Positions 409 to 25,971 are shown, counted from the stretch's first letter. The stretch: 64,000 nt of DNA from an uncultured Rhodospirillales bacterium (GCA_903865895.1 CAIPLM010000249.1:3032-67031), one strand, 5' to 3'. Program-made: numbers and translations. The notes: generated by a model not told the origin, from the letters alone.

Positions 409-516
409 TCGCGTCTCTATGTTCCTGAAGTGCGATGGTGAGGACAGATGTATGTAGGTTTCGGTGCGCGGCTATACGGTATTCGTGCTGCGGTGATAAG
501 CGTTTAGCATAGGCCG

Positions 517-3500
517 TTACGCCCCCGCAGCCCAGCGGAGCCCAATAAACGCAGAGTTGATCGCTGCCGGCGGCAATCCGAGTGGCAGCAGCCACCCTCG
601 GCCGGTTTTGCGAATTCGTTCCCCGATGGCGCCAAGGTCGAACGCCGCGACACACAGCCCTGCCCGCCACGCCAGACCCAGGGTGAAACACCAGGTCTCC
701 GGCCAGATCGACGGCTGCCACGCCATGTCCAGGTCATGGGCACGAATCAAGCCAATGGCCTCCGATTCCTTGTATGGCCCGGTGACGAAAACGTGTCCGG
801 TTTCGATCAGCCGCTGATCGTCATGGGTATGCCCGATGACGGTAAAATGCAGGTTAAGCCGCCGGGCCGCGGCATTGCGGGCGCAAGCCAGCAAGACGTC
901 GTATCCCTTTTCGGTGCCGATGCCGCCGATCACCGCGATGCGCTCCGGCGCCCGCTGCAAGAGCCGCGCCGGCGGGTAGGTGGTATCATCCTCCAGCGGC
1001 TCGACGATCGGTGCGACATCGGGGAAATGCCGGCGCATCCGAGCGGCGACATCCTCAGAGGGTACCACGATGCGGCGCGAGCGGCGTAGATCCGCCGCCG
1101 AGCGGCCGCGTAGCGCACGAACGCCGATCGTCTCGGCCAGATTGCTCCCGGCATCGCGAACGCAGGCATCGCAGACCGCAGGATTTTCCGGCTCGCCACA
1201 GTAGCGGCTGTCGCGCCCGACCAGGCTGATGCGCGGGCAGAATGCCGCGTAATCATGCACGAAGGTCTCAACCGGAATGTCGAGCTTGGTTGCGAGCCGC
1301 AACACGGCGTGGTCGTGGCCGAGGAGATGATGCACCTCGATGCACTCCGGCCGGTCGCCGCGCAGTAATCGGGTGAGGGCGGCGAGGTCATCGGGCAGGC
1401 GGAAGCGCAGGTTGGGAAAACACGGCGAATCGGCCGGCAGCCCGCCCTCCTCGACAACGCAGACGCCGGGGAGATAGGCCGGCACGCCCTCGGTCGTCAT
1501 CGCCGAGCGCAGCACGATGGCGCGCCCGCCGGCCGCGCGAATGGCGATGCTGCGCTCCCGGATCACCCGTTCAACGCCGCCGCCGCTGGCGTGGGTGAGG
1601 AGCAGCACCGCGTGGTCCTTGCGCGCCATCCGCCACCGTTGCAGGTCAATCCGCCTGCGCGCCTCCGCGAGAGGATCCTCGGCCTGGAATGCGGCGATCA
1701 GCCGGTGATAGCCGGGGTGCGTGCGCTCGAGCACCGAGAGGTTGCGCTCGATGAGTTGCTCGCGCGCGGTGCCGAAGGACTGCCCGCCGACATGGGCGAC
1801 GAACACGCCGGGCGCCGCGACGTGGCGCCAGCCGAGATGGCGGGCACGGATGCAGAAATCATTCTCCTCGCCATAGCCTTGGGCGAAGAGGTCATCGCGG
1901 AACAGGCCGGTCTCCGCCAAGCATTCCCGGCGGATGTACATACAGAACCCGACGGCGCTGGGGATCTCCACCGCAGCCCCACGATTGGCCGCAGCGGCCC
2001 AGCGTGCCATGCGGCGCAGCTCATCACGGCCGGGTACCGGATTCCCGCCAGCGACGTTCGGATAGCTCAGGATCGTCGCATCATTGGACAGGGGCGTCGC
2101 CGAGCCGACATCGGGGGTGGCATGCACCACCGCGCCGAGAGCTTCGAGCCAGCCTGGGGGCACGATGGTGTCGCTGTTGAGCAGCACCACATCATGCGGC
2201 GCCGCGAGAGCCAGGGCGGCGCGAATGCCGGAGTTGGCGGCGCCGGGAAAGCCGCGGTTGAAGGGATGGCGGATCACCCTGATCCGCCGGTCACCGCGAT
2301 GGCGACGTGCCAGGGCGGCGATCTCCGGATCCGGCGAGGCGTCATCCACCACGATGACCTTGGTGCCCTCCGGCATGGTGTCCAGCACCGCGGACAGGCA
2401 CTGCCGCACCAGATCGGCACGGCCATATACCGGCACAACGACGGCTACCTTGCGGTCCGGCCGCGATGGGCAGTTCACCGCCACGCCCCGCACATCCGCC
2501 GGCACGCTGGACAGTTGCGCAATATCCGCCAGTTCGGCCGCCTCGCGGGGCATGAGCGCGGGGAAGCGCCCGGCCACCGCCCGAGCCGCGGCCATCGCAC
2601 CCTGCTGCTCGCCGAAGGGCGTGAGCGGGCTACCGAGCAAATGCCGGCCATTCTCGGCCATCACCGCGACCGGACCGCTCTGCCCGGCAAGCATCGCCGG
2701 GGTCAGGCGAAATCGCCTGGGGCGGGAGAGCGGTGTGCGCGCCACCATGTCCTGATCATCGGCGACAAACTCCTGGATCACCCGCCCGGGCGCGCCATCC
2801 GGCCCGAGCTCCCGTAACAGCAGCCGCGGGTTGCCTTCGGGTGCTCCAGGATGCCAGGCCCAGCCCTCGATCGTCCCATCCGCCGCGGCCCGCACCACGC
2901 CTTCGACACTGCGGATATCGCCGATCCGGATCGGACTGCCCAGCAAATGCTGCCCGCCCGCCATCACCTCCAGCAACCGGACATCGGGGGGAACGCGGCG
3001 GGGCCGGCCGCGCGCCGGCGCGCCATCGAGACGCATCACCACCGAACGTGCAGTCCCGCCGGCACGCCGCACCAGGATGGCGCCGTCCTGGCCAATGGCG
3101 CACCAGCCCGGCGCGCCAGCCGCCGCAGCGATGGCATCGGCAAGGCCCGGCAGATGCGGGGCAGCCGGCATCATATGCCCCGCAAAAGCGCGCGCCATCG
3201 CCGCCGCGGCGGTCTCCACGGCGCCGACGCGATGGCGGATGGTTGCCAATGCGAGCCACACCTCCCGGATGTCACCCTCCCGCGCCAAGCCCTCAAGCAG
3301 TTCGATCGCCGGTCCGAGCACGCCGGCCTGCATGCGGGCGGAGGCCAAGGAGAGGGTGATCGCCGCATCGCCCGGCGCTAGGCGATGGGCACGCTCCAGC
3401 CAGGGCAAGGCGTCGGCCGGGGGCCCGCCCACCAATGCCGCCTGGCCCTGGCGCCACGCCGCGGACGACAGCTCCTGCAACCATTCCGAGCGCGTCTTCA

Positions 3501-3609
3501 CCGGCGCAACGCGGGATCTCCACCGATTGCCGCTGGCATCGAGCGGTTCGGTAACCGCACGATCCGCGAATGACTCGACGGGCGATGCGCCAGCCGGGTC
3601 GTCGGTCAC
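517..3609 (-). CDS. multidomain glycosyltransferase: N-terminal TPR-like repeats + GT2 domain + C-terminal GT1/GT4-like domain
   Basis: The longest ORF (517..3846) overlaps the upstream gene by 240 nt. An in-frame GTG at 3607-3609 overlaps that gene's TGA (GTGA), so 517..3609 (1030 aa) is preferred. TPR-like helices are visible (LERAHRLAPGDAAITLSLASARMQAG...). GT2 signature: VAVVVPVYGRADL...KVIVVDDASPD...NRGFPGAANSG...LLNSD. The C-terminal ~350 aa is Rossmann-like and GT1/GT4-like. Confidence 0.8.
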   Translation of the reverse strand: MTDDPAGASPVESFADRAVTEPLDASGNRWRSRVAPVKTRSEWLQELSSAAWRQGQAALVGGPPADALPWLERAHRLAPGDAAITLSLASARMQAGVLGPAIELLEGLAREGDIREVWLALATIRHRVGAVETAAAAMARAFAGHMMPAAPHLPGLADAIAAAAGAPGWCAIGQDGAILVRRAGGTARSVVMRLDGAPARGRPRRVPPDVRLLEVMAGGQHLLGSPIRIGDIRSVEGVVRAAADGTIEGWAWHPGAPEGNPRLLLRELGPDGAPGRVIQEFVADDQDMVARTPLSRPRRFRLTPAMLAGQSGPVAVMAENGRHLLGSPLTPFGEQQGAMAAARAVAGRFPALMPREAAELADIAQLSSVPADVRGVAVNCPSRPDRKVAVVVPVYGRADLVRQCLSAVLDTMPEGTKVIVVDDASPDPEIAALARRHRGDRRIRVIRHPFNRGFPGAANSGIRAALALAAPHDVVLLNSDTIVPPGWLEALGAVVHATPDVGSATPLSNDATILSYPNVAGGNPVPGRDELRRMARWAAAANRGAAVEIPSAVGFCMYIRRECLAETGLFRDDLFAQGYGEENDFCIRARHLGWRHVAAPGVFVAHVGGQSFGTAREQLIERNLSVLERTHPGYHRLIAAFQAEDPLAEARRRIDLQRWRMARKDHAVLLLTHASGGGVERVIRERSIAIRAAGGRAIVLRSAMTTEGVPAYLPGVCVVEEGGLPADSPCFPNLRFRLPDDLAALTRLLRGDRPECIEVHHLLGHDHAVLRLATKLDIPVETFVHDYAAFCPRISLVGRDSRYCGEPENPAVCDACVRDAGSNLAETIGVRALRGRSAADLRRSRRIVVPSEDVAARMRRHFPDVAPIVEPLEDDTTYPPARLLQRAPERIAVIGGIGTEKGYDVLLACARNAAARRLNLHFTVIGHTHDDQRLIETGHVFVTGPYKESEAIGLIRAHDLDMAWQPSIWPETWCFTLGLAWRAGLCVAAFDLGAIGERIRKTGRGWLLPLGLPPAAINSAFIGLRWAAGA

Positions 3610-5414
3610 GCGGCCGGTTGCCCCGCTGGGGCGGCAGCCGGGGCCGGCACGTCGAGCGCGGCGAAATCCCCTTGCGCTTCGGCGAGGCCGAGCTGAATGG
3701 CCTGGGTGAACCAGAAGCGCGCCTCGTCGAGATTGGCATCGCCGGCCAGGCCGCGGGCGAGATAACGGCCCAGCATCATCATCGCATAGGCATGGCCACG
3801 CTCCGCCGACATGCGGAACCAGCCTTGCGCCGCCACCCGGTCCCACGGAACATCATGGCCGCCGCCGAGCATCGCGCCCATCGCGAACATCGCGCCGACA
3901 TGCCCGCCCTTGGCCGCGCGTTCGAAGAATTCCAGCGCCTTGGGATGGTCCTTGTCGCCGCCCACCCCGTTCACCAGCAACTCGGCATAGGCCACGAGCG
4001 CATCGAGCATGCCCGCTTCGGCCGCCTTGCCGATCCACACCCGGCCCTCCGCCGGATCCGCTGCGGTGCCGCGACCCTCGATCAGCATTCGGCCGTACCA
4101 GTACTGGGCATTGACCACCGATGGCGCGGCGCGGCGTAGCCACACCAGGGCCTGCGCATCATCCTTTGTCACGCCGACGCCCTCGGCAAGGCAGATACCG
4201 TAATTATAGGCGCCGACGAGGTCCCCGCCATTGGCCTCCTTCTCGAACCACTCGCGCGTGCGCTGCGCCTCCTCGGGCGCGGCCTCGCGTTGCAGAGCGA
4301 GTGTTGCGAGGTCGTAGCGTGAGGTTACGTCCCCCCCCTCGGCAGAGATCCGGAACCACCGGGCGGCTTCCTCGGGGTCCTTCGGAATTCCATTACCGTT
4401 GAGGTGCATCAGGCCGAGTGCCCGGGCCGCCGCACGGTGGCCGCCCTCGGCCGCGCGGCGATACCACATGCCGGCCTCGGCAAAGTTCGGCGGTAGGTCG
4501 CCACCCCTGGCATAGAGATCCCCAACCAAGGCGGCGGCATCGATGTCGCCCTGCAGCGCTGCGCGGCGCAGCCAGGATTCGCCCTCCTGCGGGTCCTTCG
4601 TCGTGCCGCCGCGCCCGTCGAGCAGGAACAGCCCGTAGCGCGCCTGCGCCGCCCGCAATCCGCGCACCGCGGCCTCGCGATAGAGCTCGACGGCCGCCTT
4701 AGGATCCGCCGGCGTACCTTGTCCCTGCTCGGTCATCGCGCCCAGCAGATAGAAGCCAGTGGCCAACCCCCCCGCCGCCGCGAGGCGCATCCACTTGATA
4801 GCCTCCTCATAGAGGGTCGGGTCGTCCTTGCGCAGCAAAGCCAAGCCGTAGCCGAGATAGCCTTGCGGACAATCGGCCTCGGCGGACAGCTTGTAGAGCC
4901 GCTCCGCTTCGTCGAGGTTGCGGAGCGTCTCCGGCCCGGCGGTAAGGATGTAGCCCAGCAGCGCCAGACCGTCCGGTGCGTTGGCCTCGGCGGCCTTCCG
5001 CGCCCACACGATCGCACGCTCGAAATCGGGCTGGCCGAGTTCCTGCGCCCCGAACAACGCGGCGGATGGCCGCGCACGCGAAACGTCGGCCGCTTCGGCT
5101 GCACGGCTCGGCTCCGCCCCCATCGCGCCTTGCAGGAACAAAGCCGCAAGCAGCGCGGCAGCATCCATATTGCCCCGCCCCGCCGCACGCTCCAGCCAGA
5201 ATGCCCCGTCGCGCACACTCCCTGGCACACCGGCCCCTTGCAGGTAGGCGCGTCCGACCAGGAATTCGGCACGCTCGTTACCCGCCTGCGCCAGCGGCGT
5301 GAGCTGGGCAAACGCGCCGACGGCGTCGCCGGCCGCGAGCATCGCCTCCGCCCGTTTCACGCGCGCTGCCGGCGACGCAAAACGGCTGCTGACCTTGCTG
5401 AGAAGTCCGCTCAT
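3606..5414 (-). CDS. Sel1-like repeat (SLR) protein, apparently cytoplasmic
   Basis: 602-aa ORF built almost entirely of ~36-aa Sel1-type repeats (pattern A..W..KAA..G...A...LG..Y..G.GV..D...A..W, roughly a dozen by eye). No signal peptide or TM helix at the N-terminus (MSGLLSKVSSRFASPAARVKRAEAML...). Confidence 0.85.
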   Translation of the reverse strand: MSGLLSKVSSRFASPAARVKRAEAMLAAGDAVGAFAQLTPLAQAGNERAEFLVGRAYLQGAGVPGSVRDGAFWLERAAGRGNMDAAALLAALFLQGAMGAEPSRAAEAADVSRARPSAALFGAQELGQPDFERAIVWARKAAEANAPDGLALLGYILTAGPETLRNLDEAERLYKLSAEADCPQGYLGYGLALLRKDDPTLYEEAIKWMRLAAAGGLATGFYLLGAMTEQGQGTPADPKAAVELYREAAVRGLRAAQARYGLFLLDGRGGTTKDPQEGESWLRRAALQGDIDAAALVGDLYARGGDLPPNFAEAGMWYRRAAEGGHRAAARALGLMHLNGNGIPKDPEEAARWFRISAEGGDVTSRYDLATLALQREAAPEEAQRTREWFEKEANGGDLVGAYNYGICLAEGVGVTKDDAQALVWLRRAAPSVVNAQYWYGRMLIEGRGTAADPAEGRVWIGKAAEAGMLDALVAYAELLVNGVGGDKDHPKALEFFERAAKGGHVGAMFAMGAMLGGGHDVPWDRVAAQGWFRMSAERGHAYAMMMLGRYLARGLAGDANLDEARFWFTQAIQLGLAEAQGDFAALDVPAPAAAPAGQPAA

Positions 5415-5445
5415 ACCCGAAATGCCCCGGCCTTACGCTGATACA

Positions 5446-6906
5446 TCATGGCTCACGATAGGCTTCCGTCACCGACGGCACCACGCGCGAGAAGAGATAT
5501 TCGACGAACGTGCGATACCCAACGAGGATATCCGTTTGACCGGACATACCCGGTGTTATTTTGAAGTAGCTCGGCAGATGGTGCAGAGTATTCTCCTCCA
5601 TCTTGACCCGCACTTTGTAATAGAGCGTTCCGAACGCCTGCTGGGAATTCGTGATGCCGACAGGCTGCGACAAGGCGTTGTACGGGCTGCGTGACGCATC
5701 CGGCTGGATCGAAATGACCCTGCCCACCATCGTGCCATGCGTGGCATAGGGGAAGGCATCAAACTTGATCGCCGCGCGCTGGCCGACCGCAACGAACCCC
5801 GCATCGGTCGAGTCAACCACCGCCTCGGCCACATAGTCGGTCTCCTTTGGCGTCAGGGAGACGACTTGGGCCCCCAACTGCACCACGGAGCCCACGTTGG
5901 CGACGGCAACGTCCATCACCGTGCCATCGAATGGCGCACGCAGCTCGATCAACGACAGGGCGTGGTTGGCGCGCGTCAGCGAATCCTGCAAGCCGGCGAG
6001 CTTGTCGCTCTGATCCTTCAGTGCCTGGGAAGTCTGGCTCTGCCAAGTCTGCCAGGCGGCATCGCGATCGGCGATCTTGGCGGCAAGCGAACCGCGGATC
6101 TGCTCAAGCTGTGCCTTTGCTACGTCCCTCAACCGTACCGCTTCGGCCCGCTGGTCCGCTGCGGAGATTGTGTTCAGCTGGCTTCCCACGCCGAGCCGCT
6201 CGAGATCGCGCCGCTTGTCCTCGGTCTTCGCGGCATATGCGAGCCGCTCACTATACTGGCGCAGGTCCCCCTCGGCCTGCATCAGTTGCGCCTGCAACGC
6301 CGCAATTTGCTGCGCGAAGCTCTCCATCTGAAACGTGATCTCGGCGTGCCGCTGGGTATAGAGCTGCGCCTGGACCTCGCCGTGCTTGGTGCCGTCCGAA
6401 AGATACAGCCGCCCGTCGAACTCCGCGCGCAACCGGATCGTCTCCTGCGTCAGCGAGGCGACCTGATCCTGATAGGACAGCACGTCGGCGGTCGTATTCG
6501 TTGGATCGAAGGTGACCAGCAAATCGCCCTTGTGGACCGGCTGGCCCTGCTGGACGTAGATTTTCCGGACAATGCCCGCATCAATCGCCGCCAAGCCGGT
6601 CGACGGCTCGGTCGCGACGATGCCCATCGTCCCACTCACGACGCGGTCAACCGGCATGAGCGTCAAGATCAGCATCAACGCCATGAACATCGTGAAGATG
6701 ATGTACGTCGTGTAGCGGGACCGCATCGGCACCGGCATGGCGAGCTGTGCGGCCGCGGGCGATTCGTATTCGAGAACCACCCGCTCGGTGCGTTCCGCCT
6801 CCAGCATCTCCGCGCCATCGGCTTTGCCCAGCCGGAGGCTCACGCCACGTGAGGCGCGCGTCACCTGCCGGGCGGCAGTGGTCACGTTCTTTGTCGGTTC
6901 GGCCAT
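5446..6906 (-). CDS. type I secretion membrane fusion protein, HlyD family
   Basis: Single N-terminal TM helix (YTTYIIFTMFMALMLILTLMPV) and a long coiled-coil centre. The C-terminal end (GMSGQTDILVGYRTFVEYLFSRV) is typical of HlyD-family T1SS adaptors. SD GAGAGG lies upstream of the ATG at 6906. The gene is 15 nt downstream of the ABC gene. Confidence 0.9.
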   Translation of the reverse strand: MAEPTKNVTTAARQVTRASRGVSLRLGKADGAEMLEAERTERVVLEYESPAAAQLAMPVPMRSRYTTYIIFTMFMALMLILTLMPVDRVVSGTMGIVATEPSTGLAAIDAGIVRKIYVQQGQPVHKGDLLVTFDPTNTTADVLSYQDQVASLTQETIRLRAEFDGRLYLSDGTKHGEVQAQLYTQRHAEITFQMESFAQQIAALQAQLMQAEGDLRQYSERLAYAAKTEDKRRDLERLGVGSQLNTISAADQRAEAVRLRDVAKAQLEQIRGSLAAKIADRDAAWQTWQSQTSQALKDQSDKLAGLQDSLTRANHALSLIELRAPFDGTVMDVAVANVGSVVQLGAQVVSLTPKETDYVAEAVVDSTDAGFVAVGQRAAIKFDAFPYATHGTMVGRVISIQPDASRSPYNALSQPVGITNSQQAFGTLYYKVRVKMEENTLHHLPSYFKITPGMSGQTDILVGYRTFVEYLFSRVVPSVTEAYREP

Positions 6907-6921
6907 AGGTCTCGACCTCTC

Positions 6922-9177
6922 TCAGGAACCGACGCTTGTCGACAAGGCCGCACGGGCACTTGAACGGAAGCTTTCCATATGACGGTTCTGTTGTTGCCAG
7001 AGCTGACGGTAAATCGTGCAGGTCTCCAGCAACTGGTTATGCGGCCCGATATCCACCATCTTGCCGCGGTCGAGTACCATGATCATGTCGCTGTCCACGA
7101 GTGAGGAAAGACGGTGGGACACGATGACCATCGTGCGATTGGCGGCGATGCGCGAGATGTTTGCGTTCACCAAGGCCTCGCTCTCCGGATCCAGCGCGCT
7201 GGTGGCTTCGTCGAGGATGAGGATGCGCGGATCATGGATCAGTGCGCGGGCAATGGCGAGGCGCTGGCGCTGGCCGCCGGAGAGGTTGGGCGAGCCTTCT
7301 TCCACCACGGTTTCATAGCCCTGCTGCATGCGCTCGATAAACTCCTCGGCGCCGGCCAGGCGGGCAGCACGCACCGCATCAGTCAAGGTGAGGCCCGACC
7401 GCCCGGCCAGCAGGTTGTCGCGCACCGTGCCGCGGAACAGGAAGTTCTCCTGCAACACCACACCGAAGCTGCGACGCAGATGGCCGAGATTGATTTCCCT
7501 CAAATCGACGCCATCGATCTTGATCTGCCCCTCGTATTCCCGGTTGATGCCCTGCAGCAAACGCGTGATCGTCGATTTGCCGGAGCCGCTTCGCCCGACC
7601 AACCCGAGCACGGTACCGGGGGGGACCTCGAAGGATATGTCATCGAGGGCCCGCGTCTTCGTGCCAGGATAGGTGAACTTCACCCCGCGGAAGGCAATCG
7701 CCCCCTCGAAACGTGGGCGTAGCCCGCTGCCAGGATTAAGTGTCTCGGGGCGGTTGTTGAGCACCAGGCCCACCATCATCACGGAAGCGCGCAGCTCCTC
7801 AATGTCCTGCAGCAGCTTTGACAGCGCGATCAGGGGTGACGAGACACGATTGGCGATCATCATGAAGGCAACGATGTGCCCCGAGGAAACGTCAACCCCG
7901 CTGATCGAGAGATAGGCGCCTACAAGCAACACACCACGGGTCATCAAGGTATCGAAGGGCGACACCAGGGTCTCTGGCCAGTTCGAGATATCATCGAGCC
8001 GGCGCTTCCAATACGATGCATCGGCGGCGCGCCTGTCCCACATCTCCCGCTGCGCTGATTCCAGGGCCAGCGATTTGATGGTGCGGATGCCGTGCAAGGT
8101 TTCGACCAGCACGATGTTCTTCTGCACTTCGAATTCCAGCCACCGCGCATAGGTACGGCGGATCGGCTTGATGAACGAACTGATGATCATCGCCATGACG
8201 CCGCCCAGCCCGACCACCATCCAGGCCATCGGAACGCTCATCCAGAACAGCACGGGCAAGACGACCAACAGGTTCATGATGTCGAACATGGTCGTGAGCA
8301 TCTTGCCGGTAACGAAACCCCTCACCTTGCCGGTCTGCGCGATGAGATAGCTGATCCGGCCGGTCGGAGTGCGTTCGAAATAATCGATCGGCAGGCCGAG
8401 CAGGCGTTTGAAGACGAACAGGTTCATCTTGATATCAAGGCGCAAGGCGACGATCGCCGACAACTGGCGCCGGACGTAGCCCAGCAGAGCCTCGAAAAAG
8501 AGAATCGCCAGAAGCAGGGCGGCCGTCATCCAGAGGGTCGCCAAAACGCGGTAGCTCATGACCTTGTCGATGATGATCATGATCATCAGCGCCGGAACCA
8601 TCGACACGAACGACAGGACCACACCGCCCATCATCAGGTCGGAAATGATACGCCCTTCGGCGAGCACGACGCGGGCAATCCACCCCATGTCCCATGGCTC
8701 ATTATCGGCACGCGACTGACGATCCGGACGGATCAGCAAGGCCTCGCCGGACCAGAGCTGGGACAGGCGGAGTTCGTCGACCGCGACACCTTCCTGCTCG
8801 GTCTCGATCTCGGGGTCCTTGAGCCAGACCACGTTCCGCACCGAATCGGGGCGGATCATCATCGCGCCCGTGCCGTCCTTCATCAACAGGATGACTGCCC
8901 CCGGGGAGGTCATCTTGACGAGCTGCCGCCACGTCAACTGGGCCGCCTTGCACCAGAGCCCGCTCTGGGAGACCCATTCGGCCAGCGCCGCCGGCGAGGG
9001 CGCCTCACCGGGGCTGATCCGCAAATCCTCGCGCGACAAGTCAGCGCCCTGCTCGCGGGCACCGGCGACTATGGAACGCAACCGAAGGTCGAGCGGCGTA
9101 TGCACGCTCTCTGCTCCGGGTTCGTAGCTCGGATCACGCGGATCAGGATCAGGCGAAGTCACCGAAGGGGAGTCCAA
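6922..9177 (-). CDS. type I secretion ABC transporter (permease/ATPase) with N-terminal C39-like domain
   Basis: TTG start with GAGG 8 nt upstream. The N-terminal ~150 aa resembles the HlyB-type C39-like domain but has no Cys/His catalytic dyad. Multi-TM exporter core follows. Walker A GRSGSGKST, ABC signature LSGGQRQR, Walker B ILILDEATSALD, H-loop VSHRLS. Confidence 0.9.
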   Translation of the reverse strand: MDSPSVTSPDPDPRDPSYEPGAESVHTPLDLRLRSIVAGAREQGADLSREDLRISPGEAPSPAALAEWVSQSGLWCKAAQLTWRQLVKMTSPGAVILLMKDGTGAMMIRPDSVRNVVWLKDPEIETEQEGVAVDELRLSQLWSGEALLIRPDRQSRADNEPWDMGWIARVVLAEGRIISDLMMGGVVLSFVSMVPALMIMIIIDKVMSYRVLATLWMTAALLLAILFFEALLGYVRRQLSAIVALRLDIKMNLFVFKRLLGLPIDYFERTPTGRISYLIAQTGKVRGFVTGKMLTTMFDIMNLLVVLPVLFWMSVPMAWMVVGLGGVMAMIISSFIKPIRRTYARWLEFEVQKNIVLVETLHGIRTIKSLALESAQREMWDRRAADASYWKRRLDDISNWPETLVSPFDTLMTRGVLLVGAYLSISGVDVSSGHIVAFMMIANRVSSPLIALSKLLQDIEELRASVMMVGLVLNNRPETLNPGSGLRPRFEGAIAFRGVKFTYPGTKTRALDDISFEVPPGTVLGLVGRSGSGKSTITRLLQGINREYEGQIKIDGVDLREINLGHLRRSFGVVLQENFLFRGTVRDNLLAGRSGLTLTDAVRAARLAGAEEFIERMQQGYETVVEEGSPNLSGGQRQRLAIARALIHDPRILILDEATSALDPESEALVNANISRIAANRTMVIVSHRLSSLVDSDMIMVLDRGKMVDIGPHNQLLETCTIYRQLWQQQNRHMESFRSSARAALSTSVGS

Positions 9178-9625
9178 AATCGTAACCTCATCTTGCTCGC
9201 CGCATCGCGGCTATGCGGCATCAATTCCGCCGCGTTCATACATTGATCGAGCGAAGCCCAATCGCCGGTGTCGCCATCCTCGCCACCGTGTGAAATCTCC
9301 GCAATCTAACAAAAATTGTCATCAAGCCTTGCTGGCGGCCGGACCGACCATGAACTCCTTATACTGCGTTCACGTCCCACCCCCAAGCGCGCCGGATGAT
9401 TGCGGGTATAACATATCCATGAACCGGATATTATTAAACCAACCGGCACCCTATGTAGCGGGAGGTTTACAGCTTCCGGCGACACAACTCTGTTCACGAC
9501 GCCGTGATTGCGGGTGCAATCAAGGTTGCTGTGAAAGCGCAGAATTGGCTGTTGCCCTCCATCGAGGCATAATGCCCCTCAGCGCGAACGATCTCTCGGA
9601 CGACAATCTCAACAGGTGACCTGGC

Positions 9626-10054
9626 ATGCAGCAGTTGATAATCGGCGACACGGGGCGGGACGTGGTCGTTTGGCAACGCTTCCTGGTGTCCATCTGGTTC
9701 GCCCAACAGGACGAAATGCTGCACGGCGTCTTTGACGAGGCGACCGACACTGCGACCCGGGCTTTCCAGACCACCAACGGCCTGCATGATACCGGGATCG
9801 TGGACCGGCTGACCTGCGAGGCGGCCGAAGCTCAAGGACTGAAAACAGTCGATACATCAGTAAGCTGGCTGCCATCGATCGGCACCTTAGTGTGGCTCAC
9901 ATGCCTTGTTGTCCTCACGAGCGTGAGTCTTGTTTCGATTCTGCAGGTGACCCCGACGATTCTTGCGTCGGGCGGAAAGGTTGTGCTGCCGGTGCCGCCC
10001 CAGTTTTTCGGCAATTCGCCCCCGGTCAAGCAATGCCCCGGATGGTTCTGCTGA
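9626..10054 (+). CDS. putative peptidoglycan-binding domain protein with C-terminal TM segment
   Basis: 142-aa ORF in a visibly lower-GC stretch. The N-terminus matches the PG_binding_1 pattern (IGDTGRDVVVWQRFL...HGVFDEATDTATRAFQTTNGLHDTGIVDRLT). A hydrophobic helix follows (IGTLVWLTCLVVLTSVSLVSIL). Confidence 0.5.
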   Translation: MQQLIIGDTGRDVVVWQRFLVSIWFAQQDEMLHGVFDEATDTATRAFQTTNGLHDTGIVDRLTCEAAEAQGLKTVDTSVSWLPSIGTLVWLTCLVVLTSVSLVSILQVTPTILASGGKVVLPVPPQFFGNSPPVKQCPGWFC

Positions 10055-14400: not shown

Positions 14401-14934
14401 ACCACCGAGGCCGCCCGCTTCTCCCTCCCTCGCCAGCCCAAGGCCGATGGCGAGTGCATCGCCGACTTCTTCCGCGACGTCGACGACGCCCCGCGGCAGC
14501 GTAGCGCGAGCGGCCATATCGAGCGCGACGTCATCGGCCTGCAAGTCGTCACCGTCGGCCAGAAAGCCTCCGACATCGCCCGCGTCTGGTTCGAGGAAAA
14601 CCGCTACCAGGACTACCTCTATCTCCACGGCCTCTCCGTCGAAATGGCCGAGGCGATGGCCGAGAACACCCATAAGCGCATCCGCGCCGAATGCGGTTTC
14701 GCCGGCGAGGACGATCGGGACTTGGAGAAAATGCTCGCCCAGGGCTATCGCGGCAGCCGCTACTCCTTCGGCTATCCCGCCTGCCCGCGCCTGGAGGACC
14801 AGGAGCCGATCCTCAAGCTCCTCGGTGCCGATCGCATCGGCATCTCGCTCTCCGATGAATCCCAGCTGCATCCCGAACAATCCACCAGCGCCCTGGTTGT
14901 GCTCAATCCAAAGGCGAAATACTTTTCGGTATGA
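11419..14934 (+). CDS. metH: cobalamin-dependent methionine synthase
   Basis: The listed ORF starts at 11047. The in-frame ATG at 11419 (MTRLPLLDALRERVLLADGATGTHFQ...) overlaps the upstream stop. The protein contains homocysteine S-methyltransferase, pterin-binding, B12-binding (GDVHDIGKN) and AdoMet-activation modules. 1171 aa. Confidence 0.95.
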   Translation: MTRLPLLDALRERVLLADGATGTHFQAMTLDIDRDYWGQENCTDILCLSRPDLVRELHRGFFAAGADIVETNSFGGSPITLGEFGLSDRAFELNKRAGELAREAAEMFADDRPRYVLGSIGPGTKLPSLGNIAYDPLEDALAEQARGLIAGGVDAIQIETCQDPLQIKAAINGAKRARAAAGTTTPIFVSVTVETTGTLLVGPDVPAAATIVHALDIPVLGLNCATGPQEMAEHVRWLAANWPGLISVMPNAGLPELVDGQAHFPLAPDAMASWLERFVAEDGVNLIGGCCGTTRAHISALDAMLKRRGEPRPAPVERRSIWVPSVASLYQAVPLRQENAFFAIGERCNANGSKKWRELQEKADWDGCVAMGREQIDEGSHSLDICTAFVGRDEIAEMNEVITRFTASVNSPLVIDSTETPVLEAALKLHGGKAIINSINFEDGERAAADRMTLARRFGAAVIALTIDEKGMAKTAREKLDVAARLVDFACTQHGLPQSDLMIDPLTFTIATGNEDDRKLGEWTLDGIRMIRDRFPDVQIVLGLSNISFGLNPAARAVLNSVFLDHAVRAGMTGAIVHVSKIRPLHQIAAEEVQVCEDLIFDRRREGYDPLQRLLELFADRKAADAVKKKRAETVEGRLKDRIVDGDRKGLADELDEALKTHAPLAIINDILLDGMKVVGELFGAGKMQLPFVLQSAETMKAAVAHLEPLMERVEGQERGTIVLATVRGDVHDIGKNLVDIILTNNGYRVINLGIKVPLADMLTAVREHQAHAIGMSGLLVKSTVVMRENLEEMSRQGLDVPVLLGGAALTRNYVEDDCVRAYGSGRVAYARDAFDGLHLMDRVTGNGFDDYLAAVQAKRAGKARNTTRTLGQAAPAAFRPVDVAAVRQRRQAITRDVPPIEPPFWGARIIEASPKAIVPFVNERSLYQFQWGFRKQGRSLDEFLGWARQELRPVMRRMLALCDEQDILKPQAAYGYWKAAGQGNDLILFEQDGTTEAARFSLPRQPKADGECIADFFRDVDDAPRQRSASGHIERDVIGLQVVTVGQKASDIARVWFEENRYQDYLYLHGLSVEMAEAMAENTHKRIRAECGFAGEDDRDLEKMLAQGYRGSRYSFGYPACPRLEDQEPILKLLGADRIGISLSDESQLHPEQSTSALVVLNPKAKYFSV

Positions 14935-14937
14935 GGA

Positions 14938-15085
14938 TTCGAAGGAAGGGCTTCTTTTTGAAAAAAGAAGTGCAGCAGCGCTCTCGCGGATCGAAGCCGA
15001 TCCACTGTCGCTCCCGCCGCCGCTACGCTCCGCTTCGCGTCAGAAGTTTTTTGCTTCTTTTTTTCAAAAAAGAAGCCCTTCTCTT
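14938..15085 (+). repeat. AT-rich composite palindromic intergenic element, copy 1 (divergent centre)
   Basis: Terminal inverted arms gaagggcttcttttt...aaaaagaagcccttc. Internal hairpins cttctttttgaaaaaagaag (14951-14970) and gcttctttttttcaaaaaagaagc (15053-15076). The right end is near-identical to copies 2 and 3 (aagttttttgSttctttttttcaaaaaagaaS). Confidence 0.8.
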
Positions 15086-15992
15086 TTATCTTCTCTCCCT
15101 CCTCTCCGCCTGCGCCGAACCCCCACCCAACAGCGCCGCCGCCTGCGCGCTGGAGCGTCGCGGCGAGTTCCAGCTCAACTTCGGCGACGGTCTGCCCACC
15201 ATTCCGGTCACCCTCGATGGGTCCTCCGGCAACCTGCTGTTCGATACCGGCGCCTCGATGACCACCCTGTCCGCAGTGGCGGCAGCGCGGATGGATCTGC
15301 TGCACAACGGCAACATGCGCATCACCTCCCACGGCATCGGCGGCAAATCCGAGGCGATCGCCGCGGACGTCGCCCGCTTCCGCATCGGTGACATGGAGCT
15401 GCAACGCCGCACCGTCATGGTGATCCCCTTCGAACTGCGCGGCTTCAAGGCCGGCCCGCCCGACGGCCTGCTCGGCTTCGACATCTTCTCGCAGTTTGAC
15501 GTCGAGTTCGATCTGATGACCGGCCGCGGCACCTTCTACCGCCCGCGCAACTGCCCCTCCGCGGTGCCGAATTGGCTGCTCGCCTCCAACCGCTTCGTCA
15601 TCCCCAGCACCACCCCCAGCGGCAAACTGCAAATCGAGGTCGAGCTCGACGGCAAACGCCTGGTCGCCACCGTCGACACTGGCGCCGGCGGCACCCTGGT
15701 CAGCTCGGCGGCGGCAGCGAAGCTCGGCGTCACCGCCCAGCAACTCTCCTCCGCCCGCGCCATCGCCGGCTACGGCGTGGCCCCAACCGACGTGCAAATG
15801 CGCGTCGTGCGTTTCCGCGAACTCCGCGTCGGCCAGGAAACCGCGAAAACCCCCGAACTCGCCATCACCGACCTCCCGCCAGGCGCCGGTGACATGCTGC
15901 TGGGCATGAACTACCTGCGCAACCGCAAGCTCTGGATCTCCCTCTCCTCCCGCACCCTCCACCTCAGCATCCCCCAGGCGCAGACGCGTTAA
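15051..15992 (+). CDS. retropepsin-like (two-lobed) aspartyl protease, probable lipoprotein
   Basis: Two DTG motifs (LLFDTGASMTTL and ATVDTGAGGTLV), as in bacterial retroviral-type aspartyl protease families. Lipobox LLSAC. The start is uncertain. TTG at 15051 gives MLLFFKKEALLFYLLSLLSAC. The listed ORF start, ATG 14931, overlaps the metH stop but would read through the repeat element. Confidence 0.7.
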   Translation: MLLFFKKEALLFYLLSLLSACAEPPPNSAAACALERRGEFQLNFGDGLPTIPVTLDGSSGNLLFDTGASMTTLSAVAAARMDLLHNGNMRITSHGIGGKSEAIAADVARFRIGDMELQRRTVMVIPFELRGFKAGPPDGLLGFDIFSQFDVEFDLMTGRGTFYRPRNCPSAVPNWLLASNRFVIPSTTPSGKLQIEVELDGKRLVATVDTGAGGTLVSSAAAAKLGVTAQQLSSARAIAGYGVAPTDVQMRVVRFRELRVGQETAKTPELAITDLPPGAGDMLLGMNYLRNRKLWISLSSRTLHLSIPQAQTR

Positions 15993-16777: not shown

Positions 16778-17006
16778 GGCCTTTATAATAATACGTGAGT
16801 TAGATCGCCGTCAAGGACAAATATCCATATTCGAAGATTTTTTGCCCCATCACCCCCCGGGCTTCCGGCCGCACACCCCCACGCGCCCGTCCCGCCCTGC
16901 CCCCCATCACCCAGCCGCTCCGGTGGATGAACTTCGGCATCTAGCTTTCGCGGCAATCGCATGTAAACTCGAATAATTGCCACTTCGAGCCGCACGGACC
17001 CCGCCC

Positions 17007-20000
17007 ATGTCAACCATCCTTGTCACTGGCACCCTTGGAACTCCCGGCGCACTTGCCCTCACGCCAGGCAGTTCGGGAGGCTCAGGCGGGGCCGGCGGCG
17101 ACGGGAGCGCCACCGCCAGCGTGCCCACGGACGCAGAGAACAGCGCGACGGCCACCGCCGGCCCCGGCGGCAATGGTGCCGGCGGCAGTTCCGCCGGCAC
17201 CGATCCGGTGACCCACGTCACCACCCCGTACGGCGGCAATGGCGGCGCCGGCGGGAAGGGCGGCAATGCCATCGCTTCCGCCGCCAGCACGACCACCGGG
17301 ACCACCAACGCCCGAGCCTTCGCAATCGCCAATGCCGGCAACGGCGGCAATGGCGGTGCCGGCAGCCTTGGCACCCCGATCGGCAGCGCCGGACCCGGTG
17401 GCAATGGCGGCACGGCAGCCGCCACCGCCACAGCCAAGGCCACGAAGTCCGCCGACGCCACCGCCCAAGCGATGACAACCGGCGGCAACGGCGGCGGCGG
17501 CAACATCATCAGCGCGCCCAATCCCCCCCTTATCGGCAGCCTCGGCGGGTCCGCTGGCGCCGTCACCGGCACCTCAGCCACCGCCACTGGCGGCACCGCG
17601 AGCGCGAGCGCAATCGCCACTGCCGGCTCGGCCACAATTTCGTTCGGAACCGGCAATAGCGGCCTGGCCGGTGCCGTGGCCAGCGGCACCAAGGCGTCGG
17701 CCATCGCGCTTGCCCTGCATGGCGGTGCCAGCGCATCTGCAACGCAGACCGGCGGCAATGGCGGCAGCGGCTTCTCCGGCGCGGCCGGCGGCGCCGGTGC
17801 CTCCAGCAGCCTCGTCAACGCCGTCACCGGCCGCACCAATGCCGGCGGCTTGACCCTGTCGGAGATCGCAATAGCGGGCTGGGGCGGCAGCGCGACCTAT
17901 CCCGATGGCGGCAATGCCGGGACCGCCGGCAGCGCCACAGCCACACTGGCTTTCAACGATACCACCAGCCTCACCCAGAGCCAGACTATCGGCGCCTTCA
18001 CCAGCGCCTCTGGCGGCGCCGGGGGCAGCGGCGCGCTGGGCACCGCGGCCGGCAGCGCGACCGCGGCAACCACACTGACCGGAACCGGGTCCGTCCAGGC
18101 CATGGCGACTGCCGACTCGCATCTGGCCGGGACGTCGTTTGCCGGGAATGGCGCGGCCGGCGGCGCGGCCACCGCGACATCCGTGGCCACCACCACGGCG
18201 ACCGGCTTTGCCGGAGTGGATGCAACCGCGCGAGCAACGGGCTCCGCCGGCGGCGGCGGCACCGGAGCGGGCAATCATGGCGGTGCCGGCGGTATCGCCA
18301 AGGCGACGGCGCAAGGCAATGCCACCGGCGCCGCGACCGACACTGTCCTGGCGCAACAACAGGGCGGCTCCGGCGGCGGCGGTTCCTCCGGCGCGGCCGG
18401 CGGCAATGGCGCCGCCAGCACCCTCACCAACGCCGCCACCGGCATGACCAACGGCGGCACTCTGTCCCTGACGCAGATGGCGTTCGGCGGTGGCGGCGGC
18501 TCGGCCGATAGCGGCCAGGGCGGCCAAGGCGGCGGTGCCAGCTCCTCGCTGGTCCTGGACGACACCAAAAGCGCGACGCAAAGCATCTCACTGACGGGGT
18601 GGAACACCGCCTCAGGGGGGGCCGGGGGCGCGGTGGCCTTTGGCACCGCAGCCGGCGGCAATGGTGGCAATGCCACCGCCACCACGACCCTCACCGGAAC
18701 CCAGCTTGTCCAGGCCTTCGCCACCGGCAACGCCTTCCTCGGCTACAATTCCGGCGGCAACAGTGCCGGCGGCAACGGCGGCAACGGCGGCGCCTCCACC
18801 ACCAATGCCGCCGCGACCTCAACCGGCGGCAGCGCCCTCGCCACTGCAACCGCACAGGGCGGAAACGGCGGCAATTCCTCTTCCGCAAATGGCGGCAAGG
18901 CCGGCGGCGCCAGCGCCACGGCTGCCGCCACAGCGCCGGCCACCGTTTCCGCCGTGGCGGGCGCCACCGCCAACGCGACAGGCGGCACCGGCGGCGGCGG
19001 CATCATCGGCGCGGCCGGCAGCCCCGTCACCGGCACCACCGCGACCGCAACCGGCGGATCGGCCAACGCCACCGTCTACGCGATCGGCGGCGATGGCGGC
19101 ACCAGTTCGGGCGCCGGCCACACCGGCGGCGCCGGCGGCGTGGCCAGCGGATCACTCGCCACCGCGAATGGCACCGGGCCGGGCGCAGTCGGATTTGTGC
19201 TGAACACCTTCGTCCATCTCACCCAGTCCGGAGGCAATGGCGGCGGCGGCACCAACGGCGCCAATGGCGGCGCCGGGGCTTCGAGCACCCTGACCAACGC
19301 CGTCACCGGCCGCACTGACGCCGGCATCCTGACCTTCTACGAAACCGCCAACGGTGGCATCGGCGGCGGCAGTAACGGGGGTATCGCCGGCACCGCCGGC
19401 AATGCCAGCGCCGCGCTCACCTTCGACGACACCGCCAGCCCCACCCAAAGCGCACGCCTCGACGGATCCACCATCGCCACCGGCGGCGTCGGCGGCCTCG
19501 GCCAGGGCACCTCCGCCGGCGGCGCATCCGGTGCCGCCACGGCCACCATCGCCCTCACCGGCGCACATTCGGTGAATGCCAACGCCACCGCCGGGGCCGG
19601 CACCGGCGGCATTTCCAGCAACGCCAACGGCGGCAATGGCGGCATCGCGGTCGCCACATCGGCGGCCACCACCACCGCGACCGATACCGTCTCGCTCGCA
19701 TCGACGGCCCTGGCCTCCGGCGCACAAGGGGGCGGCAGCACCGGCGCCGGCAGTCATGGCGGCAATGGCGGCAGCGCCACGGCATCCGCCCAGGCCAGCG
19801 CCGCCGGCACCGCTGGCGCAACCATCACCGCCCAGCAACTCGGCGGCAATGGCGGCAGCGGCTTCTCCGGCGCGGCCGGCGGCAACGGCGCCGCCAGCAC
19901 CCTCACCAACGCCGTCACCGGCATCACCAACGGCGGCAGCCTCACCCTGATCGAGACCGCCACCGGCGGCAACGCCGGCAGCAGCGACACCGGCACCGCC

Positions 20001-21013
20001 GGAAGCGCCGGGGCCGCCAAGGCATCCCTGACCTTCGACGACACGCTGAACCCCACACTCAGCAACAGCCTGTCGAGCACAATCACCGCCACAGGCGGTA
20101 AGGGCGGCTCCGGCGCCACCGCCAGCAAAGGCGCCGCCGCCACCGCCTCCCTATCCCTCACCGGCGCCCCCGGCGCCACCGTCGCCGCGACCACCACGGC
20201 CAACGGCGGCAGCGGTGGCATCGGCACGGCAAGCAGCGGCGCTGGCGGTGCTGCCACCTCCACTTCCAGCGCCAGCGGCGGGACCGTCGCCTCCATCGCC
20301 CACGCCACCGGCGGCTCCGGCATCACCAGCGCCGGCATTGCCCTGGCCACTGCCAACGCCACCGGCATCTCCGGTTACGTCGACGCCACCGCCGCGAGCC
20401 GCTTTTCACCGGCAGTGCCGGCCACGTCGTCTCGGTCAGCGCCGAGACCAGCACCGCCACCCTCAACGGCACCGCCCAATTCACCGCGGAAACCCTGCTC
20501 GGCGGCACCATGCCCGGCTTCATCACCGCCCAGGGCGTCGCCCTCGCCGATGGCAGCCCCGCCGCCGGCAGTGTCAACGCGGTGTTCAAAACCAACCCCG
20601 CCATCAAAACAGCCTTCGGCGGCTCAACCGCCATTCTCGGCATGGGTGAATTGGGCGGCGCCTACGATCTGGGCGGCAGCGGCACGCAATCCACCTCCAG
20701 CATCATCACCTTCGGCGTCACCCTCACGCCGGCCGACCTCGCGCATGACCTGGTGATCGGCCTCTATGGCGGCAGCGCGACCGGCAGCGGCGTCACCGGC
20801 GTCACGCTCGATGTGTGGGCAAATGGCACCGACGTGCTGCATCAGAGCTTCGCCAGCGCGGCGAGTGCGACGGCCTACTTCACCAACAATACGGCCGATC
20901 TCGGGGCAATCACCGGCAGCGAGGGAAGCCCGCTGACGCTTCAGGTCGTCCTCGGCGTCACCACCAACGCACCCGGATCGGGCTTCATCGGCGGCGTGCT
21001 GCTCACGGGGTAA
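17007..21013 (+). pseudogene. glycine-rich (GGNGG / PGRS-like) modular repeat protein, reading frame broken by an apparent 1-nt deletion near 20403-20406
   Basis: Frame 0 (ORF 16977..20756, TTG; first ATG at 17007) is plausible until ...GYVDATAAS(RF) at about 20400. It then turns into Pro/Cys-rich nonsense. The frame of ORF 20510..21013 is plausible from 20399 onward (PLFTGSAGHVVSVSAETSTATLNGTAQF...GFIGGVLLTG*). One extra T in the T4 run at 20403-20406 fuses the frames (~1335 aa). No Cys and no signal peptide. Confidence 0.65.
17751..20453 (+). repeat. coding tandem modules of the glycine-rich protein
   Basis: Module anchors (GGN/SGG...STLTNAVTG...) lie at 17751, 18363, 19230 and 19842, giving spacings of 612, 867 and 612 nt. 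Modules 1 and 4 share an identical 42-nt stretch (ggcggcaatggcggcagcggcttctccggcgcggccggcggc). Confidence 0.8.
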
Positions 21014-24774: not shown

Positions 24775-24900
24775 GAAGTATCTTCTTTTTCTGAAGAAAA
24801 AGAAGCAAAAAGACTTTTATCCGTTTGCTTCGCGCTCTCCCGGGAGGGCGCAATGCAAACGGATAGAAGTTTTTTGGTTCTTTTTTTCAAAAAAGAACCC
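24775..24900 (+). repeat. AT-rich composite palindromic intergenic element, copy 2
   Basis: Fills the whole 126-nt spacer between convergent stops. Hairpins: cttctttttc-tgaa-gaaaaagaag, ccgtttgc...gcaaacgg around a cccggg core, and gttcttttttt-c-aaaaaagaac. The first ~40 nt and last ~32 nt are near-identical to copy 3. Confidence 0.85.
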
Positions 24901-25971
24901 CTACCCTTCCACCACCTCAGGCGCCTCCCACGTCGTCCTGAACTCCCGGAACGTCGAAGGAATCTCCTTCAGCGCCGACAACACCCGCCGCCGCGTGTTG
25001 TCGCCATCCTCCGGCAGGAAATCGATCGAGACGGCGTCCGCGATGCCGCCAAACCGGTCGGCGATGGCGTTGGGCAGCTTGTCATATGTGGCGCGGGCGC
25101 AGAACAGGTCCAGCACGTCGTCATCCACCATCGCCGCCATCTTGTCCCACTCGCCGCGCCGCGAGGCCTCATGCAGCTTCACGCCGAGGTCGCTAAGCCC
25201 GTGAATATCGAACACCCCGCGATAGGCGGGGGTGGAGCCGTAGAAGGCGACGCGGTAACGGATTTTCTCCGAGGCCGCCTTCACCGCCGCATCGTCCGGC
25301 CCGGTGGCGATAAAGCCGCCGCCGGTGACCTCGAAGGCATCGAAGCTCTTGCCGCGCTTGGCAAGCTCCTCGCCCAGCAGCGGGCGCACCACCTGCTCGA
25401 CATATTTGCGGGTGGCAAAGCCATGCAGGCGGACACCGTCACAGTGGCGAGCCGCGGCCTTCTGCATTTCGGGGCCCACGGCGGCGATCATCAGCGGCAC
25501 CATGGGGAGTCCTGTCGGCTTGGGGGAGAATTCCGGGGTCATCAGAGTGAAGGTGTAGAACTTGCCCTTGAAGTTGAGCTTCTCGCCGGTCTCCCAGCAC
25601 CGCCAGATCGCCCGGAGCGCGCGGATATATTCGGACATGCGCGGCGCCGGCGAGATCCACGGCACGCTGAAGCGCCGCTCATTATGCGCCTTCACCTGGG
25701 TGCCGAGGCCGCAGACATAGCGGCCGCCGGAGGCGGCGTGCAGATCCCACGCCAGATTGGCGACGATCATTGGGCTGCGCGGGAAGGCGATGGCGACCGA
25801 GGTGGCGAGCTCCACCCGGCTGGTCGCCACCGCGGCCATGGCGAGCGGGATGAACGGATCATGCGCGAGTTCGGGTGTGGTCACGCCGTCGAACCCATCG
25901 GCTTCGGCGCGGGCGGCGGCGGGGCCGCATTGGCGCCAATCGGCATACGGCAGGCTGGTGTTGACGCGCAT
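24901..25971 (-). CDS. luciferase-like monooxygenase (LLM) class oxidoreductase
   Basis: Internal ATG at 25971 (MRVNTSLPYADW...). LLM/TIM-barrel family features are present (ELATSVAIAFPRSPM...LGLGTQVKAHNERRF...), resembling the 'probable F420-dependent' LLM subfamily. Confidence 0.8.
   Translation of the reverse strand: MRVNTSLPYADWRQCGPAAARAEADGFDGVTTPELAHDPFIPLAMAAVATSRVELATSVAIAFPRSPMIVANLAWDLHAASGGRYVCGLGTQVKAHNERRFSVPWISPAPRMSEYIRALRAIWRCWETGEKLNFKGKFYTFTLMTPEFSPKPTGLPMVPLMIAAVGPEMQKAAARHCDGVRLHGFATRKYVEQVVRPLLGEELAKRGKSFDAFEVTGGGFIATGPDDAAVKAASEKIRYRVAFYGSTPAYRGVFDIHGLSDLGVKLHEASRRGEWDKMAAMVDDDVLDLFCARATYDKLPNAIADRFGGIADAVSIDFLPEDGDNTRRRVLSALKEIPSTFREFRTTWEAPEVVEG

Follow-up and report, generated by a model that had tools for sequence, protein, structure and literature searches.

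A Gly-rich, leaderless repeat protein of an undescribed family, interrupted by a frameshift in an uncultured Rhodospirillales bacterium

We analyzed a 64,000-nucleotide stretch of DNA from an uncultured Rhodospirillales bacterium (GCA_903865895.1 CAIPLM010000249.1:3032-67031; hereafter the window, meaning this whole stretch), focusing on a gene for a giant Gly-rich repeat protein on its plus strand. One open reading frame (ORF) runs from 16977 (TTG) or 17007 (ATG) to 20756 and encodes 1259 or 1249 aa, respectively. A second plus-strand ORF, in the -1 frame, spans 20510-21013. Read in frame 0 over 17007-20399 and in the -1 frame over 20402-21010, the gene yields a protein of ~1,335 aa and 117 kDa with a pI of 4.68, consisting of 24% Gly, 20% Ala, 15% Thr, 11% Ser, and 5% Asn, with no Cys. 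Ser and Thr together make up 26% of its residues and Asp 2.2%. The motif GGxGG occurs 30 times (12 as GGNGG), against a single GGxGxD.

The frame-0 part of the gene (17007..20399, + strand) covers the leaderless N-terminus (MSTILVTGTLGTPG), a stretch of ~245 aa with degenerate Gly-rich repeats, the four super-repeats, and a linker. Translation likely starts at the ATG at 17007, and the window peptide MSTILVTGTLGTPGALALTPGSSGG lines up with the N-termini of full-length relatives (e.g., MSTLTANGTSGTPG and MSTVFVSGTSGGNG). Relatives at loci L004, L005, L019, and L021 begin with homologous sequence. The N-terminus of the window protein has neither a basic n-region nor a hydrophobic core and is thus not of the Sec type. 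Translation, composition, and N-terminal homology therefore bear out the first-pass annotation of this locus, which had described a Cys-free, leaderless protein of ~1335 aa rich in Gly, Ala, Thr, Ser, and Asn. The motif counts likewise agree with its observation that the Gly motif lacks the Asp of RTX repeats.

Homologues, with E-values as low as 1.6e-44, confirm the strand and frame, as do public gene calls. Short-read contigs (ERZ1426836, L001, and L002; window 18663-20368) break within the repeats at ~18663 and ~19844. On these broken contigs, public callers place opposite-strand ORFs of 204, 134, and 221 aa, which we call spurious, and a stand-alone 167-aa "gene" for the C-terminal domain. 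An opposite-strand gene was rejected, as the minus-strand ORFs called on truncated contigs are without homologues. Both the split and the opposite-strand calls are artefacts that the GC-rich repeat and the frameshift produce in annotation.

Four super-repeats make up the central part of the protein. Copies of repeat family D3 begin at 17750, 18362, 19229, and 19841 (spacing 612, 867, and 612 nt) and share 72-81% nucleotide identity. Each contains GGNGG...(S/T)L(T/V)NA(A/V)TG...L(A/V/T)(F/L)(N/D)DT. The resulting modules are 204, 289, 204, and ~186+ aa long. Super-repeat 1 (17750..18361, +; 204 aa) combines repeat families D3 and D2 and reads GGNGG...LVNAVTG...LAFNDT. Super-repeat 2 (18362..19228, +; 289 aa) consists of a 204-aa-type unit plus ~85 additional Gly-rich residues, with self-identity peaks at lags of 204 and 289 aa. 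Super-repeat 3 (19229..19840, +; 204 aa) and super-repeat 4 with the linker up to the frame break (19841..20399, +) carry the D3 repeats and motifs and lie inside a structural model described below (m38b81b4a7795).

Modules 1-2 match modules 3-4 with a phmmer E-value of 2.6e-55, far above chance similarity. Because the modules are too diverged, Tandem Repeats Finder is blind to them and reported nothing in the gene other than trivial 9-21-nt repeats. The module anchors proposed earlier coincide with the D3 copies almost to the base, and the proposed motif (GGNGG...STLTNAVTG...LTFDDT) recurs, with variants, in all four. A uniform module length of ~204 aa does not hold, since module 2 is 289 aa long.

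The repeat array is predicted with high confidence to adopt a beta-rich fold. An AlphaFold2 model of the region encoded by 19197-20399, built on a 19-sequence alignment, has a pLDDT of 94.9, a pTM of 0.92, and 49% beta-strand. In the model, each unit comprises a ~9-residue strand, a GGxGGx turn, a 1-4-residue bridge, a second Gly turn, another ~9-residue strand, and a short turn. Self-identity of the repeat region peaks at lags of 41, 43, and 204 aa, which gives five structural units per super-repeat. Of the 94 Gly residues, only 11 are located in strands. Foldseek searches of the model against PDB and BFVD returned no significant match (all E>1e-3, TM<0.2). The non-significant list is headed by a springtail polyproline II (PPII) antifreeze protein (E=0.013), followed by right-handed beta-helix tailspikes and pertactin.

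Significant Gly autocorrelation is confined to lags 1 (z=4.6) and 3 (z=9.4), with none at lags 6 and 9. This pattern fits GGxGG turns rather than long polyglycine II (PGII) helices or (GGX)n tracts. A polyglycine-II/PPII reading of the Gly tracts was rejected, given the lack of signal at lags 6 and 9 and the non-significant springtail match. The first-pass annotation had proposed structure prediction in the expectation of a beta-helix or beta-roll; the confident beta-rich, repetitive fold is in line with this, with the fold class itself a matter of the model.

The repeats are followed by a conserved C-terminal domain. This domain (20402..21013, stop included; + strand, -1 frame) ends in GFIGGVLLTG, with no further tail. 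Its AlphaFold2 model (pLDDT 84.7, pTM 0.82) is a beta-sandwich of ~160 residues, for which the best Foldseek matches are weak: CBM61, CBM27, CBM6, and MAM jelly-rolls (E~1e-3, TMq 0.2-0.33). Exhaustive HMMER searches recovered 598 clusters (50% identity) at E<=1e-3; 319 of them pass E<=1e-10 and 79 pass E<=1e-30. These exhaustive searches were needed, as word-index searches with the same domain yielded just 2 and 8 matches. The ~200-aa non-repetitive C-terminal domain noted earlier is thus real and conserved.

On sequence grounds, the giant protein is a member of an undescribed and unannotated family. The repeat region matches 57 proteins (best E=1.6e-44), repeat homology spans E=1.6e-44 to 1e-20, and narrower alignments used to find related loci gave three genome loci and six metagenome loci. 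The window protein carries the family signature: ~204-aa super-repeats with GGxGG...TLTNAVxG...LTFxDT, followed by a domain with ELGGxY...GxTxxxL...YFT(N/D)...GSGF. Pfam and NCBIfam scans of the giant protein, its C-terminal domain, and 25 domain homologues found no family. PDB sequence searches with the repeat and C-terminal profiles gave no match, and we found no description of the family in the literature on PGRS-like, Gly-rich, and Hint proteins with type I secretion systems (T1SSs) in Alphaproteobacteria.

Full-length relatives from metagenome-assembled genomes (MAGs) share the composition (~25% Gly, no Cys), N-terminus, super-repeat motifs, and C-terminal domain of the window protein. 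They include proteins from Sphingomonadaceae (L003, 2,636 aa), Sphingomonadales (L004, 2,175 aa), and Caulobacterales (L005, 1,687 aa), and two from metagenome loci (L019, a 1,693-codon stop-to-stop frame; L021, 567 aa). Super-repeat number varies from one (L021) to more than 10, with four in the window protein.

The C-terminal domain is combined with at least five kinds of ending: none, a short tail, RTX, Hint, and PEP-CTERM or dockerin. Most relatives extend beyond the sandwich with "GDPP" and a ~50-aa tail (among others, P0004, P0007, P0067, and P0204, and those at L003, L004, L005, L018, and L019). This tail has a conserved amphipathic motif, (R/H)F(V/A)QAMA(G/A)(F/M)G. A tail-less clade ends in GG(V/I)L(L/I)(T/S)G and comprises the window protein, P0002, P0060-63, P0070, and the relatives at L020-L023. 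Of the top 150 representative clusters, 11 or more stop precisely where the domain does; the tail-less form is therefore a maintained variant rather than a truncation. One tail-less homologue, on a JGI metagenome contig (L022 1921-6283), has several frame breaks inside its repeats, reflecting either assembly errors or a decayed copy.

In the window, the gene is interrupted immediately upstream of the sandwich domain. The frame breaks at ~20399/20400, in unique, non-repeated sequence that reads GCGAGC-CGCTTTTCAC. In a pairwise alignment, the sister strain L011 (GROS21-1), 97.8% identical over 9.4 kb, reads GCGACCGCGCTTTTCAA and has one additional base. Its translation is uninterrupted across the break (...DATAATALFNGSAGH... 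within ...GISGYADATAATALFNGSAGHVV...GGVLLTG and stop). Homologues P0002, P0004, P0007, and P0016 also cross this junction in one frame. The window allele is identical in L001/L012, L002, L009, and L010. L009 is the source scaffold (BUCK21-1_SAMEA6872997 scaffold_198, 79,156 bp; 1 mismatch in 21 kb), and L010 is an independent megahit contig (ERZ27313596; 3 mismatches in 13.9 kb) that covers the entire gene, including the repeats. L001/L012 and L002 are two short contigs with the same frame-break string. The frame break is a genuine 1-nt deletion in the window genome (20397..20402, +; frame 0 to -1). The first-pass annotation had passed over it as a simple frame repair, a treatment that the several assemblies and the intact L011 gene contradict.

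Because of this deletion, the C-terminal ~200 aa, the region in which a T1SS signal would be expected, are not made in frame in the window genome. The as-encoded product is 1,249 aa long, and its last 119 residues are out of frame (20400..20756, +; 119 codons and a stop), forming a Pro/Ala/Ser-rich tail with three Cys and no homologues. With the C-terminal domain it also loses any C-terminal secretion signal, which argues that the window copy is most likely a recently inactivated pseudogene and would have lost its function.

Genes adjacent to several relatives point to type I secretion. At L004, an ATP-binding cassette (ABC) transporter with a C39-like domain and an HlyD lie directly upstream of the 2,175-aa homologue. 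At L003, the C-terminal part of an HlyD and a TolC-like OEP lie directly upstream of the 2,636-aa homologue. At L007, homologue P0040 is followed by a sedolisin/S8 peptidase and then by an ABC(C39) and an HlyD, two genes downstream. The ABCs of L004 and L007 are 55% identical over their full length and the HlyDs 39%, which suggests that they form a dedicated transporter lineage. Since all three T1SS-adjacent homologues have the ~50-aa tail, it is a candidate secretion signal.

The C-termini of other relatives are compatible with this route. RTX C-termini occur in distant relatives that share the repeats or the domain (P0008, P0013, and P0025), and T1SS-target-type C-termini in P0021 (a weak TIGR03661 match), P0037, P0083, and P0112. 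T1SS cargos are typically large, repetitive, and Cys-poor, lack an N-terminal signal, and carry a C-terminal secretion domain. The window protein shows the generic traits of such substrates in its lack of a Sec signal, its acidic pI, and its lack of Cys. The first-pass annotation had named a Sec signal or autotransporter barrel in orthologues as evidence against such export. Sec leaders are found only in relatives with PEP-CTERM-like endings; all others, including tail-, RTX-, and Hint-type relatives and the window protein, are leaderless, and the window protein has no barrel. Thus, the repeat-domain cassette is an extracellular module used with several export routes. For the family as a whole, type I secretion is the best-supported of these routes, judging from gene neighborhoods and C-termini.

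We consider it probable that 17007-21013 (+), although broken in this copy, is a gene for an extracellular fibre protein of ~1,335 aa from this undescribed family, with T1SS as the likely export route. Family members begin with a brief conserved N-terminus without a leader, continue with super-repeats rich in Gly, Ala, Thr, and Ser whose number varies, and are capped by a predicted ~200-aa jelly-roll resembling a carbohydrate-binding module (CBM). Each super-repeat would consist of five ~41-aa units, each formed by two ~9-residue beta-strands joined by GGxGG-type turns. Leaderless members would be exported unfolded, C-terminus first, through a type I system of the HlyB/HlyD/TolC kind. Outside the cell, the protein may act as a surface or matrix fibre or an adhesin, with the sandwich domain as its distal binding tip. 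In the window copy, the 1-nt deletion just upstream of the sandwich domain shifts the last ~200 residues out of frame.

Several observations weigh against parts of this proposal. T1SS genes adjoin only three of the 14 relatives with usable flanks (L003, L004, and L007). All three of those relatives have the ~50-aa tail, which the window protein and its closest clade lack, and the flanks of the tail-less L021 and L022 contain no T1SS genes. The T1SS in the window itself lies 8 kb from the giant gene, on the other strand and in a separate operon, and belongs to a different subfamily from the cargo-linked transporters. We infer a "beta-solenoid-like" array from a model in which either a parallel solenoid or another beta architecture may apply. 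The CBM-like label draws on weak Foldseek scores (TMq <=0.33), with no function-defining domain identified, and inactivation of the window copy is read from its reading frame.

The alternative that best withstands this evidence is that the leaderless, tail-less subclade is not a T1SS substrate at all, and that its members use another route, are not secreted, or are released by lysis, with T1SS serving only the tail- and RTX-bearing branches. The restriction of T1SS adjacency to tailed relatives and the flanks of L021 and L022 favor it, as does the occurrence of the cassette with Sec/PEP-CTERM, dockerin, and Hint C-termini, which indicates that the cassette does not set the export route. Yet the N-terminus of the window protein is homologous to those of T1SS-adjacent proteins and carries no Sec signal, and the tail-less form is a maintained variant. 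Furthermore, T1SS substrates are often encoded away from their transporter genes. We regard this alternative as rather unlikely and T1SS export of the tail-less subclade as more probable.

A second alternative makes the giant protein a functional cargo of the window's own T1SS (5446-9177), O-glycosylated by TPR-glycosyltransferases at 517-3846 and 52639-54258. This broadly follows the first-pass annotation, which had called the protein the only plausible cargo of that system. The transporter genes form part of a minus-strand operon (window 1-9177 and L017 16499-18821) comprising, in order, an HlyB-type ABC (6922-9177), an HlyD (5446-6906; both identified by Pfam/NCBIfam), a Sel1 protein with 10 repeats (3606-5414), and a TPR/GT2/GT4 fusion (517-3846). 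The operon extends past the window start to a leaderless, Cys-containing 317-aa protein, which straddles that start, and then a GT1.

In favor of this pairing, the T1SS lies within 8-10 kb and the family is plausibly T1SS-exported. However, identity between the window ABC and the cargo-linked ABCs reaches just 35%, across the membrane and ATPase domains alone, as against 55% within the cargo-linked pair, and the N-terminal ~185 aa of the window ABC have no Pfam C39 match. Its HlyD is 27-28% identical to the cargo-linked HlyDs, which share 39%. By these comparisons, the window T1SS is not orthologous to the cargo-linked transporters. The frameshift also takes the C-terminal domain of the proposed cargo out of frame. 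Five genes on mixed strands intervene between the operon and the giant gene: a PG_binding_1 ORF, an ArsR/methyltransferase regulator, metH, a tandem Asp-protease gene, and a divergent hypothetical gene.

Moreover, the T1SS operon has partners of its own (the Sel1 protein, two glycosyltransferases, and the 317-aa protein), and the 8-kb distance is the sole link between it and the giant gene. The designation as the only plausible cargo is therefore unjustified, and the operon may export its own glycosylated product instead. Type I secretion is probable for the family; the pairing with the window ABC/HlyD is unsupported, and we consider it very unlikely.

The glycosylation part of this alternative fits the high Ser and Thr content of the protein. 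Nevertheless, the second proposed TPR-glycosyltransferase (52639-54258) is a NodZ-like/TPR protein 32 kb away. TPR-sulfotransferase or TPR-fusion genes do lie a few kilobases from some relatives (L005 18474-20525; L024 16459-19067 and 6842-7669; L025 2975-6442). This proximity is a weak hint of post-translational modification within the family, possibly sulfation rather than glycosylation.

The window holds other features. A gene ~1 kb upstream of the giant gene (14931-15992, +) specifies a protein with a tandem pair of retropepsin-like Asp_protease_2 domains, and a similar two-domain Asp protease lies 2.4 kb downstream of the Caulobacterales homologue (L005 13132-14259, -). We rejected the tandem Asp protease as a conserved partner, as it occurs only at these two loci, the copies are mutually undetectable by tblastn, and the recurrence may be coincidence. 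The small PG_binding_1 ORF (9626-10054, +), divergent from the T1SS ABC gene, has a C-terminal hydrophobic segment and sits in a lower-GC stretch (8001-10000; GC 0.60). A ~121-nt direct repeat occurs at ~24782-24902, between convergent genes, and at 57989-58110 (91% identity, 3 gaps). It may be a repetitive extragenic palindromic (REP) or terminator-like element; no Rfam model matched anywhere in the window.

A third alternative accepts the deletion and denies its effect, through programmed -1 frameshifting, transcriptional slippage, or a functional 1,249-aa product. A TTTT run adjoins the break, and the frameshifted allele was assembled from several datasets and hence persists in the population. 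On the other hand, the sequence at the site, CC-CGC-TTT-TCA, does not fit the slippery heptamer pattern X_XXY_YYZ, and the out-of-frame tail is Pro/Ala/Ser-rich, finds no homologues, and adds Cys to an otherwise Cys-free protein. As L011 is simply one base longer at this site, the frame change is a mutation rather than a conserved recoding signal. Programmed frameshifting was thus rejected, and a non-inactivating break is highly improbable.

That the frameshift is a sequencing or assembly artefact in an intact gene is extremely improbable: repeats do break short-read contigs in this gene, and the frame breaks of L022 could be assembly errors, but the window break lies in non-repeated sequence, at least five separate assemblies by different assemblers give the same base string, and the divergent strain L011 shows a clean 1-nt difference. 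We thus retain the reading of a broken gene for a probably T1SS-exported fibre protein. The locus should be annotated neither as two genes nor as the cargo of the neighboring transporter.

More tentatively, the family might represent a new class of non-RTX T1SS substrates, a proposal we consider possible but doubtful. Such proteins would have a previously unseen beta fold of ~41-aa period with Asp-free GGxGG turns, presumably independent of Ca2+. They would carry their own secretion determinants, either the GDPP...(R/H)F(V/A)QAMAxFG tail read by a dedicated CLD-type ABC or a tail-less variant terminated by the sandwich. The Ser/Thr-rich fibre would perhaps be decorated by TPR-fused sulfotransferases or glycosyltransferases whose genes lie close to several members.

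Giant repetitive T1SS proteins, such as adhesins, S-layers, and ice-binding proteins, shape attachment and surface building in Gram-negative bacteria. To our knowledge, nearly all characterized examples depend on Ca2+-binding RTX repeats. The locus points to a sizeable, unannotated family that spans Alphaproteobacteria and beyond, with ~600 C-terminal-domain clusters at 50% identity. Its repeat fold, confidently predicted and without a PDB counterpart, and its conserved capping domain, reused with various endings, are apparently new, as far as the models indicate. Should the T1SS link and the tail motif be borne out, the family would offer a tractable system for the recognition and extracellular folding of non-RTX substrates. 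For the window genome, the message is more modest: a probable recent pseudogene, for which the proposed T1SS and glycosyltransferase pairings are unsupported.

Among known systems, the mycobacterial PE_PGRS proteins share the very high Gly and Ala content and the GGxGG and GGNGG motifs. The window protein differs in having no PE domain (PF00934) or any other Pfam match, and its N-terminus is unrelated. Its host is an alphaproteobacterial MAG, to which the type VII (T7SS/ESX) context is inapplicable. PE_PGRS proteins have long GGA/GGN tracts, whereas the window protein has short Gly turns between ~9-residue beta-strands. The PGRS resemblance noted earlier is one of composition only, given the missing PE domain and the lack of an extended period-3 Gly signal.

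Right-handed beta-helix proteins (pertactin and phage tailspikes) and Gly-rich PPII-bundle antifreeze proteins are likewise elongated, beta-rich, and repetitive, as predicted for the window protein. However, no Foldseek match reaches E<=1e-3, all TM-scores are below 0.2, and the window protein carries neither an autotransporter barrel nor a Sec signal. It is also set apart from type V autotransporters (T5SS) by the lack of any autotransporter Pfam match and by a C-terminal model that is a sandwich, not a barrel. It is distinct from PEP-CTERM/exosortase substrates, as it ends in GGVLLTG with no transmembrane helix and no Arg cluster. A Sec signal and PEP-CTERM are found together only in distant relatives (P0014, P0038, P0053, P0057, and others).

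RTX and other giant T1SS substrates (e.g., the Caulobacter S-layer protein RsaA and LapA/MpIBP-type adhesins) are similarly large, acidic, Cys-free, rich in Gly, Thr, Ala, and Ser, repetitive, and leaderless. As with RTX-type substrates, relatives of the giant protein are encoded beside ABC(C39-like)/HlyD/TolC genes, and in its distant relatives P0008, P0013, and P0025 this repeat cassette is joined to true RTX repeats. RTX proteins are defined by tandem Ca2+-binding GGxGxDxUx nonapeptides (PF00353, HemolysinCabind) and by an uncleaved C-terminal signal read by an HlyB-type ABC. The window protein, however, has no PF00353 match (E<=0.01), its single GGxGxD and few Asp residues, and a unit of ~41 aa rather than 9 or 18 aa. 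It ends in a CBM-like sandwich that no RTX block precedes. It also has no BIg- or cadherin-type repeats and no recognizable N-terminal retention module.

The window protein has homologous Gly-rich super-repeats and a similar leaderless N-terminus in common with the "Hint domain-containing" and "beta strand repeat-containing" giants (PF13403, Hint_2) of Xanthobacteraceae and other Alphaproteobacteria. Homologous repeats are found in P0010, P0012, P0017-19, P0033, and P0035, several of which have the same beta-sandwich. In these giants, the sandwich is followed by a Hint_2 autoprocessing domain, whereas the window protein stops at the sandwich.

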